Positions 34,688-60,598 of a DNA stretch of 64,000 nt are shown here, piece by piece. Made by a program: the position numbers and the translations under genes. Every line of letters begins with the position of its first letter. Within the stretch, counting starts at the first letter, position 1. The stretch covers positions 323,680-387,679 of the forward strand of contig CACJUN010000001.1 of NCBI GenBank assembly GCA_902596665.1. Reading direction: 5' to 3'. Source of the stretch: an uncultured SAR86 cluster bacterium. Its GTDB lineage: Bacteria; Pseudomonadota; Gammaproteobacteria; Magnimaribacterales; AG-339-G14. The notes below the pieces were generated by a model. The model had not been told where the DNA came from. It saw nothing but the letters and a program-made list of their open reading frames with translations, and did not search any database.

Positions 34688-35254
34688 TTAATCTCTTGCT
34701 AAAGAGATAAGGAAGAAAGAATTTTTGCTGTGGGTAAAGCAGATAAATTCATCATAAGAAACTAGTGCATGAGACCACTCATGCTCATATTTAATTGGCT
34801 TGATTTCTTTAAAAGACTCAGAATTTTCTAAAAATACAAATTTATAACAATCAGAATAAATTTTATTTACTCTTTCATTAAATTTTCCTATTGCCTCATT
34901 ATTAATAAGATTCTTGTATTTAGATTTTGCATTAACTACTGAATCAAGCGATTTAAAGAAAGAATTGTTGGGCGGAATTTCAAGATAATTATCTACTTGA
35001 ACATTTTTAGATAGAAAAGGCCCATGATATTTAGGGAGATAATTAAAAAAATTCCCAGTTAATTGAAAATTAAAAAAAGGACTAGCCTTGTATATTTCTA
35101 ATAATTTTTTTGATGAATAAGTTTTATTATTATTTATAGAGAAGAAAGAAATTAAACATTGGAAATTTGTACCCAATCTAAGATAGTCAGTACCATTTAA
35201 AAGTAAATCTTCACTTTTATGTGAAGCAGATTTTTTACTTTTTTCAAATTCCAA
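34688..35254 (-). CDS. hypothetical protein with a C-proximal HExxH (HEWSH)
   Basis: 188 aa with no signal peptide. It overlaps the trpS stop by 11 nt. I recognise no family. Confidence 0.5.
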   Translation of the reverse strand: MEFEKSKKSASHKSEDLLLNGTDYLRLGTNFQCLISFFSINNNKTYSSKKLLEIYKASPFFNFQLTGNFFNYLPKYHGPFLSKNVQVDNYLEIPPNNSFFKSLDSVVNAKSKYKNLINNEAIGKFNERVNKIYSDCYKFVFLENSESFKEIKPIKYEHEWSHALVSYDEFICFTHSKNSFFLISLARD

Positions 35255-36227
35255 TTTTTTCCTTAATTTTCTCTAAATTTTTATTAGCCTCATCTCTGGC
35301 CTTAGTTTCTCCAGCCTCTAATGTATCTTCTATCAATTTAGGATTATTTATTAAATCAAAATATTTATCTCTAAGAGGAGATATTTCTTGATTAATTTTT
35401 GTAAATAATTTTTTCTTGGCATCCCCCCAACCAATTCCCTCTTCAAATTCTTTTGTTATCTCATTTATTTCTTCTTCATCGGAAAAGTGATTAAAGTACT
35501 GAAAAATAATTGAATCTTTTGTTTCTTTCTTTTCGCCAGGTTCTTTCGAATCGGTTTTAATTTTATTGATAGATTTTTGTAAAATTTTTTCAGATGAAAA
35601 TAAATCAATTGAGTTATTGTAACTTTTACTCATCTTTCTACCGTCTGTACCAGTCAATAAATCAAGCGATTCATCAATAATGGGTTCAGGTAATTGAAAA
35701 AAATTTTTATAAGTTTTGTTAAATTTATCTGCGATATCACGAGTAATCTCTAAATGCTGTTTTTGGTCTTTTCCTACAGGAACATACTTAGGATTGAACA
35801 TCAAAATATCTGCTGACATCAACACTGGGTAACTAAATAAACCATGAGATATACCGAAATCCTCATCGTTTTTATTTTCTTTGTTTAGATCAACTGCAGC
35901 TTTGTATGCATGCGCTCTATTAAGGAGTCCTTTAGGAGCCATACAGGATAAGATCCAATTTAATTCAAGTATTTGTGGAACTTTTGATTGTCTGTAAAAA
36001 AGAGAGTTTTTACTATCAAGTCCGCATGCTAACCATGTCGCAGCTATCTTCATGGAAGATTCTTTCACTGCGTCAGGATCGTTAACTTTTATCAAAGAAT
36101 GATAGTCAGCTAGAAAGAGATAGGATTTAAATTTCTTACTAAGTTGTATAGCAGGTTTTATAGCTCCAACGTAATTACCTAAATGAGGCGTTCCAGTAGT
36201 TGTAATACCTGTAAGAGAGGAATCCAT
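35244..36227 (-). CDS. trpS: tryptophan--tRNA ligase
   Basis: 327 aa with the class I motifs TGTPHLGNY (HIGH-type) and KMSKS. Confidence 0.9.
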   Translation of the reverse strand: MDSSLTGITTTGTPHLGNYVGAIKPAIQLSKKFKSYLFLADYHSLIKVNDPDAVKESSMKIAATWLACGLDSKNSLFYRQSKVPQILELNWILSCMAPKGLLNRAHAYKAAVDLNKENKNDEDFGISHGLFSYPVLMSADILMFNPKYVPVGKDQKQHLEITRDIADKFNKTYKNFFQLPEPIIDESLDLLTGTDGRKMSKSYNNSIDLFSSEKILQKSINKIKTDSKEPGEKKETKDSIIFQYFNHFSDEEEINEITKEFEEGIGWGDAKKKLFTKINQEISPLRDKYFDLINNPKLIEDTLEAGETKARDEANKNLEKIKEKIGI

Positions 36228-36238
36228 AGTGTAAGTAT

Positions 36239-36267
36239 AAAAAAAAACACCACAAAAGTGGTGTTTT
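36239..36267 (-). terminator. Rho-independent terminator 11 nt upstream of the trpS ATG
   Basis: The minus strand reads ACACCAC-UUUU-GUGGUGU (7-bp stem, extendable by A-U pairs) followed by a U9 tract. Confidence 0.7.
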
Positions 36268-36270
36268 ATC

Positions 36271-36368
36271 GAAGTTGAAGGGGTTCAGTGGGTTCTACTG
36301 ATGCAGGCGATTGACCCTTCTCCCTGCAGGTGGCTGAGTTTCCTCAGTTCTTCTCACCCTTCTTCTTC
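36271..36368 (-). ncRNA. unclassified G+C-rich structured RNA (four helices); trpS leader or independent sRNA
   Basis: This is the only G+C-rich non-tRNA island in the window. By-eye pairings are listed in the finding for this region. A terminator follows directly. Confidence 0.45.
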
Positions 36369-36430
36369 TCATCTTTTACTTCTGTTTAATCGTCTCGAGT
36401 TAATTAAATTTTGTTAAAAGACTGATATCT

Positions 36431-36458
36431 ATACTAATGATTTTTTTGTTCGATTCAA
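36431..36458 (-). promoter_or_regulatory. candidate sigma70 promoter for the structured RNA
   Basis: The minus strand has TTGAAT (36458-36453), a 16-nt spacer and TAGTAT (36436-36431), preceded by a long A/T-rich tract. It is a sequence-only guess. Confidence 0.3.
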
Positions 36459-36546
36459 TACCCAAAATGCACTTTTTAAGATTAATTAATTATTAAAAAA
36501 ATTTTTTATATTTATTTATAAAATAAAAAAGCAAATTGGTTAATTT

Positions 36547-37077
36547 TTAATCAATTTTAGATAAGATTTCTTCAATTGAGTCATATAAATTGAACATATT
36601 GAATGTTTTTTCATTAAAAAAACCTTCATCTTTTGCATTCTTAAGAAATATTTTTAAAGAATCATAAAAGCCGTTCGTGTTTAGAATAAAAATTGGCTTA
36701 TCTATAATTTGAAGTTGATTCCATGCCATGATTTCGAAGATCTCTTCATATGATCCAACTCCTCCTGGTAACAAAATAAAACAATCAGCAGCGTCTGACA
36801 TAAGTTTTTTTCTTTCATGCATGGTTTGAACAATTTTTAATTCTTGGATACCCTCATGGCCTGCCTCCATATCGAGTAATCTCTCAGTAATAACACCATA
36901 TATGTCACCTCCTGCAGAAAGGCAGCCGTTTGCAAGCTCATTCATTAATCCTAGCCCTCCTCCTCCATAAACAAGCTTATGATTAGCCATAGCAATTTGT
37001 TTACCTAATTCAAAGGCTGTTTCGGCATAGAGAGGATCCTTACCAATTGATGAACCTAGAAAGACGCAAATATTCAT
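36547..37077 (-). CDS. LOG family protein (TIGR00730; cytokinin riboside 5'-monophosphate phosphoribohydrolase-like)
   Basis: 176 aa with GGGGLGLM and PGGVGSYEEIFE motifs. Confidence 0.85.
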   Translation of the reverse strand: MNICVFLGSSIGKDPLYAETAFELGKQIAMANHKLVYGGGGLGLMNELANGCLSAGGDIYGVITERLLDMEAGHEGIQELKIVQTMHERKKLMSDAADCFILLPGGVGSYEEIFEIMAWNQLQIIDKPIFILNTNGFYDSLKIFLKNAKDEGFFNEKTFNMFNLYDSIEEILSKID

Positions 37078-37084
37078 TTTTTTA

Positions 37085-37176
37085 TGGCGGAGGGGGTGGG
37101 ATTCGAACCCACGAGGCCATTTCTGACCTGCTGGTTTTCAAGACCAGTGCATTCAACCAGACTCTGCCACCCCTCC
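37085..37176 (-). tRNA. tRNA-Ser (anticodon UGA), CCA encoded
   Basis: The reverse complement folds as a cloverleaf. Acceptor is GGAGGGG/CCCCUCC. The anticodon arm is CUGGU-CUUGAAA-ACCAG. There is a long variable arm. The T arm is GUGGG-UUCGAAU-CCCAC, with discriminator G and CCA. Confidence 0.9.
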
Positions 37177-38856: not shown

Positions 38857-39513
38857 TCATCTCCAGGGATCAAAATCTTTGAAATCGAAATAATTGATTC
38901 CAGATTTACTATTTAAAGAGTTGTTAACCACTTGCTTTGCAACTGCTTTGGCTGAGATGCTTCTAAATTTTTTTAAAGATCCATGTAAAAAAGGATCAAA
39001 AAAAATTGAAGCCAAATCGGCTAAAAGAATATCAAATCGATATTTATTCCCTCTTAAATGTCCAGGTTGGAATATATTTGTAGAATCAAATCCAATATTG
39101 ATAATTTCATTCTCTACGCGACCCTTGGTTTTTAAATAATAATTCCAAGAATGAGGATTGGCGCCAACTGCTGAAATAATCGATATATTTTTAGCACCAG
39201 CATCTTTTGCTTTTTTTGCTATTTCAAGTTGATAAGTAAAGTCTACTAAGCATAAATTATTCTTTAGGTTTTCATTCATAACGCCCATTACGTTGTGAAA
39301 ATAAAGTGGATACCCTAAGGAAAGAAATAGATTGTCTATTTTGGGGAAATCTAATTCTGATAGTTTATTGAAATCAACAATTAACTGTTCAGCGTCAACT
39401 GGTAAGTAATCGATATTTCTTCTGCTTATAGCTATGGTCTTACTATTTGTTGAACTTAATTCATTTAGTATTTCGTTTCCTAAAAATCCTGTTGAGCCTG
39501 CTAATAGATTCAT
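38857..39513 (-). CDS. NAD(P)H-binding atypical SDR (HTATIP2/NmrA-like)
   Basis: 218 aa with an N-terminal GSTGFLG Rossmann motif. Confidence 0.6.
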   Translation of the reverse strand: MNLLAGSTGFLGNEILNELSSTNSKTIAISRRNIDYLPVDAEQLIVDFNKLSELDFPKIDNLFLSLGYPLYFHNVMGVMNENLKNNLCLVDFTYQLEIAKKAKDAGAKNISIISAVGANPHSWNYYLKTKGRVENEIINIGFDSTNIFQPGHLRGNKYRFDILLADLASIFFDPFLHGSLKKFRSISAKAVAKQVVNNSLNSKSGINYFDFKDFDPWR

Positions 39514-43788: not shown

Positions 43789-44409
43789 ATGAGTTTTTAC
43801 GAAAAAAAAATATTGCCTAAGGTTCTTGATTTGCTTTGCGGATCATCCCCTATTAATTATCAGAGAAAAAAAATTGTTCCTAAAGTAAGTGGCAATGTTC
43901 TTGAAATTGGAATTGGCTCTGGATTAAATCTTCCGCATTACAACGTATCTAATATAAGCAACATAACTGCTTTAGATCCAGCAGAAGAATTAACTGATAT
44001 CGCAAAAAAAAGAATTTCTGAATTAGACCTTGATATTGATGTAATAAACTGTGGAGCTGAAGAAATTCCACTAGAATCAAAATCCTTTGATTCAATACTT
44101 GTTACTTATACCTTGTGTTCTATTGAAAACTTAGACGATTCGATGAAGGAAATAAGAAGAGTGATGAAGGATGATGGAACTCTATTTTTCTGTGAACACG
44201 GGATTGCTCCTGACCTAAAAACAAAAAATTGGCAAAACAGGATAAATCCTATCTGGAAAAGGTTAATGGGTGGATGCAATATCAATAGGGACATACCTGA
44301 AATAATTTCTAACTCAAAATTAGAAATTGTAGATTTAGAGACAATGTTCCTTCCAGGCACACCTAGGATTGCTGGTTTTAATTATTGGGGAACAGCCAGA
44401 ACCAACTAG
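43789..44409 (+). CDS. class I SAM-dependent methyltransferase
   Basis: 206 aa with motif I VLEIGIGSG and post-I/II spacing typical of the Methyltransf_11 type. Confidence 0.75.
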   Translation: MSFYEKKILPKVLDLLCGSSPINYQRKKIVPKVSGNVLEIGIGSGLNLPHYNVSNISNITALDPAEELTDIAKKRISELDLDIDVINCGAEEIPLESKSFDSILVTYTLCSIENLDDSMKEIRRVMKDDGTLFFCEHGIAPDLKTKNWQNRINPIWKRLMGGCNINRDIPEIISNSKLEIVDLETMFLPGTPRIAGFNYWGTARTN

Positions 44410-59845: not shown

Positions 59846-59868
59846 TTCTTCCTCATAGTCTTCACTAT

Positions 59869-60598
59869 ATGAATAAGTACAAATATTTAGAAACTAAACT
59901 TAATAGCGGTGTTTTCTATATTGAGTTAACTCGAAAGAAGTCTATGAATGCTCTTAATACAAAAACTCTTGATGAATTAAAAAAAGTATTTTTTAGAAGC
60001 TTCAGAGAACAGCAAAATTAAAATCATAATTCTTCATTCCAATGAAAATAATTTTTCTGCTGGAGCAGATATAAAAGAAAAATTAAAGAGAAAAAATAAC
60101 TTAGAAAGATGGCAAAAGAATTATGGTAAAGAATGCATAGAAGCTATTCTCTCTACTCCTCAAATAACTATCTGTGTAACTAATGGCTATACATTAGGAG
60201 GAGCCGCAGTAATCGCAACAGCTTGCGATTTCAGGATTGGCAACAAAGATACAATTATTGGTTATCCAGAAATTGTCTTAGGGATGAATCTAAATTGGCT
60301 TGGTCTGCCTTTACTTCAAAATATTGTAGGGTCCACAAAGACAAAGGAAATGGTTATCTCTGGGCAAAATTATTCCACGGATGAATTAAGTAAATATAAT
60401 TTTTTTGATGATCTGTTTGATGAAGATGACAAAATTAAAATTATCAATAAATGGGTAAAGAAATTTAAATCAAGATCTCCTTTAGCTTCTCAAATGATTA
60501 AAAGAAGTATTAATGTTCTAGCTTTCCATGATGCCCTTGCAATTATGCATATGGATTATGATCAATTTCTATTGACTCAAAATTATTCAGACAGCTAA
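59869..60598 (+). pseudogene. enoyl-CoA hydratase/isomerase (crotonase) family gene interrupted by a +1 frameshift in a T6 run
   Basis: Frame 1 (59869-60021) gives MNKYKYLETKLNSGVFYIELTRKKSMNALNTKTLDELKKVFF then RSFREQQN*. The next frame from 59990 gives FLEASENSKIKIIILHSNENNFSAGADIKE...GYTLGGAAVIATACDFRIG... through to 60598. Deleting one T of T6 (59989-59994) joins them into one crotonase. Confidence 0.7.

Follow-up and report, generated by a model that had tools for sequence, protein, structure and literature searches.

The gene for tryptophanyl-tRNA synthetase (TrpRS), trpS, of an uncultured SAR86 cluster bacterium is directly preceded by a structured, G+C-rich RNA, and we asked what this RNA is and whether it serves as a leader of trpS or as a gene of its own. 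The window analyzed here is a stretch of 64,000 nucleotides (GenBank assembly GCA_902596665.1, contig CACJUN010000001.1, positions 323,680 to 387,679 of the forward strand); all coordinates are those of the window, and the features of the locus lie on its minus strand unless another strand is given. The RNA sits in a 319-nt spacer between a LOG-family gene (36547..37077, PF03641) and trpS (35244..36227, PF00579, E 2.6e-58), a neighbor that lies outside the RNA. An earlier note on this DNA had described an unidentified RNA with an intrinsic terminator and had offered two readings, a cis-acting leader or attenuator of trpS and an independent small RNA (sRNA) whose terminator insulates trpS. The results assign the RNA to IMES-5, a family catalogued before, carried here by a SAR86 bacterium, and the promoter, the terminator and the gene order favor the second of these readings. 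Taken by itself the outcome of the scan is ordinary: Rfam already lists the family of this RNA, and the idea that the RNA regulates trpS does not hold. What is new beyond the Rfam match is the set of SAR86 carriers with their fixed gene order, the covariation of a pseudoknot, a covarying palindrome in a loop, and the signature of a leaderless trpS. In the surface ocean few uncultured bacterial groups are as abundant as SAR86, within which the RNA has a fixed genomic address.

Family membership and fold of the RNA

A scan of the window with Rfam cmscan matched 36270..36420 to IMES-5 (RF02995) at 141.2 bits, well above the gathering score of 96.1 (E 4.7e-28). The alignment was not truncated and covered model positions 1-150 of 150, and the only other match at gathering level in the whole window was a tRNA-Ser. 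The RNA, which the earlier note had called unidentified, is thus a known one; the cmscan search that the note proposed returned a significant family match, the result it had named as speaking against its claim. Rfam types RF02995 as 'Gene; sRNA'. IMES-5 was reportedly described in 2017, in a survey of 224 candidate RNAs, from marine environmental sequences and with a function that was not known. A more sensitive Rfam scan of 36150..36650 reported only IMES-5 and IMES-1 (RF02034), and no riboswitch, T-box or leader family appeared in it at E <= 1. The IMES-1 alignment ran from end to end but stayed below threshold (29.1 bits, gathering score 81, E 2.4e-4), so the window RNA shares the architecture of IMES-1 without being a member of that family. 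IMES-1 is said, in a report of 2009, to be exceptionally abundant in marine metatranscriptomes.

All consensus pairs of IMES-5 could be placed on the window RNA in the cmscan alignment, with five non-standard pairs flagged, and the minimum free energy (MFE) fold agreed with the consensus. The RNA begins with a two-part 5' hairpin, P0 (36374..36420), which carries the 10-nt loop AACUCGAGAC (36401..36392). The 5' strand of P1, GAAG-AA-GAAGGG (36357..36368), is followed by a conserved UGA and pairs with the 3' strand CCCUUC-AA-CUUC (36271..36282). P1 encloses three hairpins: P2, CUGAG-GAAA-CUCAG, with a GAAA loop (36334..36347); P3 (36302..36328), in which UGCAGG (36328..36323) pairs with CCUGCA (36307..36302) around a loop that holds GGGU (36317..36314); and P4, UCAGU-AGAACCC-ACUGA (36285..36301), with ACCC (36293..36290) in its loop. 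The earlier note had placed P1, P2, P3, the two loop motifs, the terminator and the promoter correctly on the minus strand. Its P4 is present as well, although the 4 bp that it gave are only part of a 5-bp stem (36301..36285), and the RNA of four helices that it drew is real, the MFE fold giving the same helices, except that the conserved P0 hairpin (36420..36374) had been missed.

The unpaired motifs of the window RNA, namely the loop AACUCGAGAC, GGGUGA, AGGGU, AACCC and the 3' CCCCUUCAACUUCG, are identical to the upper-case letters of the IMES-5 consensus, and AGAAGAAGAAGGGUGA is another conserved single-stranded IMES-5 motif that the RNA carries. All consensus helices and conserved single-stranded motifs of RF02995 are shared, with no structural difference. 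When 36420..36270 was folded alone, the MFE was -36.9 kcal/mol (z = -2.96) and the helices were P0 and P1 to P4; with the terminator included, z was -4.06. The spacer itself is uneven in composition: its distal 130 nt have 14-18% G+C and its proximal 150 nt about 50%, compared with 33% for the whole window. The earlier note had taken this for the only strongly G+C-enriched stretch besides the tRNA, a claim that fails because a few 100-nt windows of coding sequence equal its value of 0.50-0.52.

We collected homologues by searching species-representative genomes with a pattern made from the two P1 strands, which yielded 120 loci. Of these, 29 are genuine: all belong to SAR86-type genomes, their G+C content is 31-36%, and the P0 loop motif is present in them. 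About 90 exact 97-nt matches in high-GC genomes were discarded, one of which, on examination, sits in an aldehyde dehydrogenase gene. Counts out of 30 below refer to the 29 homologous loci plus the window. The window and several single-cell genomes of SAR86 are near-identical (94-97% identity in TrpRS), and nine of ten representatives of the SAR86 clades passed the IMES-5 gathering score over the full length, at 113-133 bits.

Plain MAFFT and covariance-model realignments put P3 and P4 out of register between clades. The helices were examined in an anchor-based, N-padded alignment of 26 distinct sequences, the rows of which are, once the padding is removed, the real sequences. Standard pairs occupied 90.5% of the pair cells, compared with 72.3 +/- 0.9% in shuffled alignments (0 of 500 reached the observed value) and 37-50% when the partners were slid. 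Changes on both sides were seen at 25 pairs, among them six pairs in the first and five in the second helix of P0, all five pairs of P2 (93.1% of cells paired) and all five of P4 (94.6%). Three of the four outer pairs of P3 also changed on both sides, and the fourth departs in one unpaired sequence only; in the Rfam alignments the P3 stem has 9-10 bp in every clade while its sequence differs. Compensatory changes thus support P0, P2, P3 and P4. A check of covariation had been suggested in the earlier note for its helices, and among the SAR86 homologues it came out positive for P2, P3 and P4 and, in addition, for P0. We also considered a small protein encoded in the RNA and rejected it: other clades do not have the ATG, and the substitutions track the base pairs instead of codons.

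Promoter, terminator and gene order

In front of the RNA lies a putative promoter (36431..36458) with the -35 element TTGAAT (36458..36453), a spacer of 16 nt and the -10 element TAGTAT (36436..36431), and an A/T-rich tract upstream of it. The sequence around the promoter diverges among the homologues, while its position is conserved: the -35 element reads TTGnnn in 28 of 30 loci, the spacer is 16-17 nt long, and a -10 element TAnnnT ends 9-12 nt before model position 1. What the earlier note had offered as a possible promoter is, in this way, supported by comparison. The RNA is followed by an intrinsic terminator (36239..36267), AAAACACCAC-UUUU-GUGGUGUUUU plus a U run, that was also found by a terminator scan. 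It starts 3 nt from the RNA domain and consists of a 10-pair stem with four G-C pairs, a 4-nt loop and 9 U in all. Of the 30 loci, 21 have a terminator, and its stem varies in a compensatory way, as in CACCGC/GCGGUG and CACCUU/GAGGUG, so that the terminator noted earlier not only was confirmed by the scan but also covaries in other clades.

The gene order around the RNA is conserved. The next gene on the same strand is trpS in each of the 27 loci of sufficient length, and the syntenic block reads tRNA-Ser, (LOG), IMES-5, (ligT), trpS, a 188-aa open reading frame (ORF) and an MFS gene, the genes in brackets being variable. Two spacings were seen. In the closer one, seen in the window and in 17 further loci whose TrpRS is 57-97% identical, the RNA is followed at short range by the terminator and trpS, which starts 44-49 nt after P1 and has no Shine-Dalgarno sequence (SD). 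In 13 of the 29 homologous loci (TrpRS 52-55% identical, full-length matches), a convergent gene on the opposite strand stands between the RNA and trpS. It encodes a LigT-like 2H phosphoesterase of 181-202 aa (PF02834, E about 1e-14; loci L001, L010, L012, L020, L037, L045, L053, L058, L065, L070, L088, L101 and L107) and is not found at this site in the window lineage. Twelve of these 13 loci reach trpS, which there lies 656-691 nt away, has an SD (GAGGAG, GGAG or AGGA) and starts with GTG or TTG. Nine of the 13 have no terminator after the RNA, and in these nine 5 nt separate the RNA from the stop codon of the LigT-like gene. The LigT-like gene was considered as a conserved partner of the RNA and rejected, as it is absent from the IMES-1 loci. 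We conclude that the adjacency of the RNA and trpS is best explained as conserved gene order in a compact genome.

Loop pairing within the RNA and probable pairing between molecules

Comparison with IMES-1 bears on how the loops of the RNA are used. IMES-1 (RF02034), the sister family, keeps its elements in the order seen in IMES-5: a 5' hairpin in two parts, whose loop reads A-A-[6-nt palindrome]-A-C; a linker rich in purines; GGGUGA; P1 with the three hairpins that it closes and the pseudoknot between the P3 and P4 loops; a 3' tail resembling CUCGA; and the intrinsic terminator. IMES-1 differs in being longer (191 positions), in its much larger P2, in its usual palindrome, CUGCAG, and its usual pseudoknot, GAGA:UCUC, and in its neighbors, which include genes for indoleamine 2,3-dioxygenase (IDO), pyruvate kinase, OAD-beta and LamB/YcsF, but never trpS. 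In some loci IMES-1 occurs in tandem copies about 300 nt apart, each with a terminator (L123, at 1388-1579 and 1691-1882; L161; L184; L205), and in the three of these where both loops were read, L123, L161 and L205, both copies carry CUGCAG. An origin of the RNAs from phage was considered and dropped: no IMES-5 was found on viral contigs, and the IMES-1 pattern yielded nothing there but false positives and a single fragment at a contig end.

The P3 and P4 loops of the window RNA can pair through GGGU (36317..36314) and ACCC (36293..36290), a loop-loop pseudoknot spanning 36290..36317. Within IMES-5, 99% of the cells of this contact are paired, with one double change from G:C to U:A (L007), four changes from U:A to U:G and one break (L058), and the evidence from this family alone would be thin. 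For IMES-1, we used 67 IMES-1-like metagenome sequences that had been fetched with a pattern avoiding both loops. Their loops pair as GAGA:UCUC, GAGAU:AUCUC, GAAAU:AUUUC, GAGAG:UUCUC and GAAGA:UCUUC, and the complementary run has a mean length of 4.5 nt, compared with 2.5 +/- 0.13 nt in shuffled loops. Across the families the pairs include GGGU:ACCC, GGGU:GCCC, GGUU:GACC, GAGA:UCUC, GAAAU:AUUUC and GAAGA:UCUUC, and when both were pooled, 43 of 44 distinct loop combinations had a complementary run of at least 4 nt. The pseudoknot is thus supported by covariation within and between IMES-5 and IMES-1. It gives IMES-5 a tertiary contact backed by covariation, of a kind that the covariance model of RF02995 is unable to encode, and it bears out the loop-loop contact that the earlier note had thought possible. 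Two other pairings, J1/2 GGUG with J2/3 CACC and GGGUGA with the 3' end of 16S rRNA, were judged by eye and dropped; J2/3 is not conserved in other clades.

At the center of the P0 loop is the palindrome CUCGAG (36394..36399), which is invariant in 29 of 30 IMES-5 copies. We aligned the 5' regions of 55 IMES-1-like and 23 IMES-5 sequences with plain MAFFT, with no motif imposed, and the hexamer fell in one column block; the pattern used to search for IMES-1 had left the hexamer position free. CUGCAG is found in most IMES-1 sequences, CUUAAG and UUGCAA each in an IMES-1 subgroup, CUAUAG in the IMES-1 locus L214, and CUCGAG in IMES-5, so that the sequence changes among five palindromes and the self-complementarity stays. 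Counted over the hexamer column pairs 1-6, 2-5 and 3-4, 232 of 234 cells (99.1%) were self-paired, compared with 81.4 +/- 1.7% in shuffles (0 of 500 reached the observed value) and 21-59% when the block was slid. The central pair was GC in 47 sequences, CG in 23, UA in 6 and AU in 1, and the outer pair CG in 74 and UA in 3. Every palindrome subgroup has representatives above the IMES-1 gathering score (91-196 bits). CUCGAG also occurs in L232 (298-489, minus strand), an IMES-1-class RNA (124.8 bits) of a SAR86 relative; the proteins flanking it are 67-70% identical to those of window genes at 21.0-24.1 kb, and at the corresponding window site, 23544/23545, two convergent genes abut with no spacer.

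The partner of the palindrome must be a second molecule, because three adjacent pairs without an intervening loop cannot form within one chain. Pairing within the molecule to the 3' tail was considered and excluded, since the tail keeps its CUCGA where the loop has changed. The predicted duplex of two CUCGAG loops has -9.5 kcal/mol; those of the G+C-rich palindromes range from -9.5 to -9.9 and those of the A+U-rich ones from -5.4 to -6.0 kcal/mol. The loop of the dimerization initiation site (DIS) of HIV-1 is AAGCGCGCA. Like this site and like OLE L9.3 and GOLLD L21a, the P0 loop has a self-complementary stretch flanked by unpaired adenines, and in all of them the palindrome switches in evolution. 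IMES-5 differs in its length of about 150 nt and shares no sequence kinship with these RNAs; the likeness is an analogy of mechanism, and the dimer of IMES-5 is a prediction from sequence. It has been reasoned that adjacent nucleotides cannot pair within one chain and that covariation of a palindrome accordingly indicates pairing across chains, and for OLE L9.3 and GOLLD L21a the dimers deduced from covarying loop palindromes were confirmed by cryo-EM (bioRxiv 10.1101/2024.12.08.627333).

We give an even chance to the proposal that IMES-5 and IMES-1 work as symmetric homodimers held by the loop palindrome, each monomer being compacted by the P3/P4 pseudoknot. The covarying palindrome of the two families predicts such a kissing-loop homodimer and links the two marine sRNAs to the new field of natural assemblies made only of RNA. 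If the proposal is true, the natural RNA-only homo-oligomers (OLE, ROOL, GOLLD) would extend to RNAs of about 150-190 nt from abundant uncultured ocean bacteria, and the homodimer would offer a first structural lead on RNAs that have reportedly lacked a known function since 2009.

Combining these results, we are fairly confident that IMES-5 is a stand-alone sRNA gene with its own promoter and terminator, whose product would act in trans as a folded, dimeric particle and beside which trpS is insulated and leaderless. A sigma-70-type promoter (-35 at 36458, -10 at 36436) would start the RNA near 36424, and the intrinsic terminator, with its U tract reaching 36239, would end it, giving a transcript of roughly 185 nt. 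Of its two domains, the first is the P0 hairpin presenting the loop AA-CUCGAG-AC, and the second a 3' four-way junction in which P1 closes P2, P3 and P4, compacted by the 4-bp pseudoknot between the P3 and P4 loops. Most likely, two molecules would pair through their P0 palindromes by Watson-Crick pairs to form a kissing-loop homodimer. The RNA would most likely act in trans as a folded particle, probably bound by protein, rather than as a leader of trpS. In the window lineage the terminator would double as an insulator of trpS, which probably starts from a -10-like TATACT overlapping the end of the U tract and is then read as a leaderless mRNA.

Several results weigh against this reading. The window promoter scores 8 of 12, under the scan threshold of 9 of 12, and a recognizable terminator is absent after the RNA in 9 of 30 loci. 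The alignment used for the helices was fitted to the structure. P1 is invariant in all homologues, partly because the search pattern demanded it, and covariation neither backs nor contradicts this helix. As to the dimer, CUAGAG in the IMES-5 of L010 and GUGCAG in L132 and L185 are not palindromes; they make four of six self-pairs, with predicted duplexes of -3.6 and -4.1 kcal/mol. Errors of assembly or decay of the copies could account for these loops, or they may be true exceptions; L132 is below the IMES-1 gathering score. Finally, trpS stands beside the RNA in every sufficiently long locus, which may reflect function and not synteny.

Expression of trpS, tryptophan and the neighboring genes

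In the window the ATG of trpS, at 36227, is 11 nt past the U tract. TATACT (36234..36239), which ends 6 nt before this ATG and shares the final U of the terminator, is a candidate -10 element. All 17 SAR86 loci with close spacing keep TATACT-N6-ATG unchanged except for the N6, which varies, and there is no SD; the lineages with the LigT-like gene have an SD and a GTG or TTG start in its place. The lack of an SD is not diagnostic on its own, because SD-like motifs are rare in this genome: a crude count over the window ORFs of at least 150 aa, taken at the longest-ORF starts, found an SD-like 4-mer at -18..-4 in 12 of 52. The invariance of TATACT suggests a leaderless trpS mRNA, and the distance of 6 nt to the start codon is the canonical one for a -10 element in that arrangement. 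The earlier note had raised the possibility that TATACT makes trpS leaderless, and the comparison of loci is in its favor. Another gene, at 43789 on the plus strand, begins with TATAAT-N7-ATG, and initiation that is SD-independent and leaderless may be common in this genome. The locus also shows extreme compaction of the genome, with the U tract of a terminator overlapping the -10 element of a probably leaderless trpS.

A live alternative, which does not exclude a leaderless trpS, is that the stand-alone RNA is highly expressed and that trpS, lacking its own promoter in this lineage, is passively fed by the IMES-5 transcripts that read through the terminator, TATACT being a mere A/T-rich spacer. 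The 11 nt between the U tract and the ATG are too short for a conventional promoter plus leader, and no -35 element was evident upstream of TATACT on reading the window sequence. With SD-less starts being normal here, SD-independent translation of a read-through mRNA is conceivable. Against this stand the efficiency to be expected of a terminator with a 10-pair stem and 9 U, and the constancy of TATACT, which keeps the geometry of a leaderless start in loci where TrpRS identity falls to 57% and the six intervening nucleotides are free. We therefore regard supply of trpS by read-through alone as unlikely, and keep a probably leaderless trpS behind an insulating terminator as the preferred view.

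Less probable still is that IMES-5 and IMES-1 act in trans as regulators tied to tryptophan, regulating or responding to its availability without a cis leader. The gene for IDO (PF01231, 298.8 bits), a second tryptophan-related gene, lies divergently about 85-140 nt upstream of IMES-1 in at least 18 loci of its largest lineage, the one with the loop CUGCAG (identity 59-100%; loci including L122, L123, L136, L153, L154, L164, L167, L171, L178, L193, L195, L205, L226, L229 and L231), and IMES-5 stands next to trpS wherever a SAR86 locus is long enough. This coincidence was, however, spotted after the fact, and each association is limited to one lineage. Other IMES-1 clades have unrelated neighbors (LamB/YcsF, FabI, MFS, OAD-beta and pyruvate kinase), no IDO gene was found near IMES-5, and no TrpRS gene was found in 64 IMES-1 loci (443 kb). 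The whole IMES-5 block is, moreover, syntenic, and adjacency need not mean function. The link to tryptophan is a lead, not a conclusion.

The weakest reading, and in our view a very improbable one, is the cis-acting leader or attenuator of trpS put forward in the earlier note, in which the RNA domain would sense tryptophan, tRNA-Trp or TrpRS and set the read-through at 36267..36239. The locus does resemble T-box RNAs, leader-peptide attenuators and thrS-type operators in that a structured RNA and a terminator immediately precede a same-strand gene for an aminoacyl-tRNA synthetase, with everything from P1 to the ATG within 44-49 nt in the closely spaced loci, with trpS as the constant next gene, and with a tryptophan-related neighbor of IMES-1, IDO, in one large lineage. 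It differs from them in having no match to such a family in the sensitive scan, no terminator/anti-terminator alternative in the 189-nt fold and no conserved leader ORF, the sole ATG-initiated frame in the RNA being absent from other clades. In the 189-nt fold the terminator stands beside the RNA domain at a distance of 3 nt, each forming independently of the other, and the MFE and centroid structures are the same. An attenuator would be expected in the 5' untranslated region wherever it occurs; here the convergent LigT-like gene splits the RNA from trpS in 13 of 29 loci, 12 of which show a trpS with its own upstream region, SD and GTG or TTG start, and nine of the 13 lack the terminator. The leader reading is disfavored because this gene intervenes, because the IMES-1 loci lack TrpRS, and because an anti-terminator is lacking. 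The type that Rfam assigns, sRNA, also speaks against it, and the IDO gene, being divergent from IMES-1, is not open to cis regulation by that RNA. The independent sRNA with an insulating terminator remains the preferred reading.

Some observations concern the genes on either side. Upstream, the ATG of the LOG-family gene (37077) is 7 nt downstream of the 3' end (37085) of a tRNA-Ser(UGA), as seen in 37075..37176 on the minus strand; given this short distance, the LOG gene presumably either shares a transcript with the tRNA or has its start inside it. Several SAR86 clades have no LOG gene, and in them the tRNA is directly upstream of the IMES-5 promoter. Downstream, an ORF of 188 aa (34688..35254, minus strand) shares 11 nt with the end of trpS and is kept behind trpS in most SAR86 loci, at 28-95% identity; this ORF and another of 218 aa (38857..39513, minus strand) have no Pfam match.

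The earlier note had called the IMES-5 spacer the largest non-coding gap in the window, and it is the largest that is truly non-coding. A larger apparent gap, 59846..60283, exceeds it because an enoyl-CoA hydratase gene at that place (59869..60598, plus strand) is broken, with positions 3-37 of the ECH_1 profile matched in 59869..60021 and positions 136-224 in 60284..60598. Either the gene is frameshifted or a pseudogene, or the sequencing was in error there.

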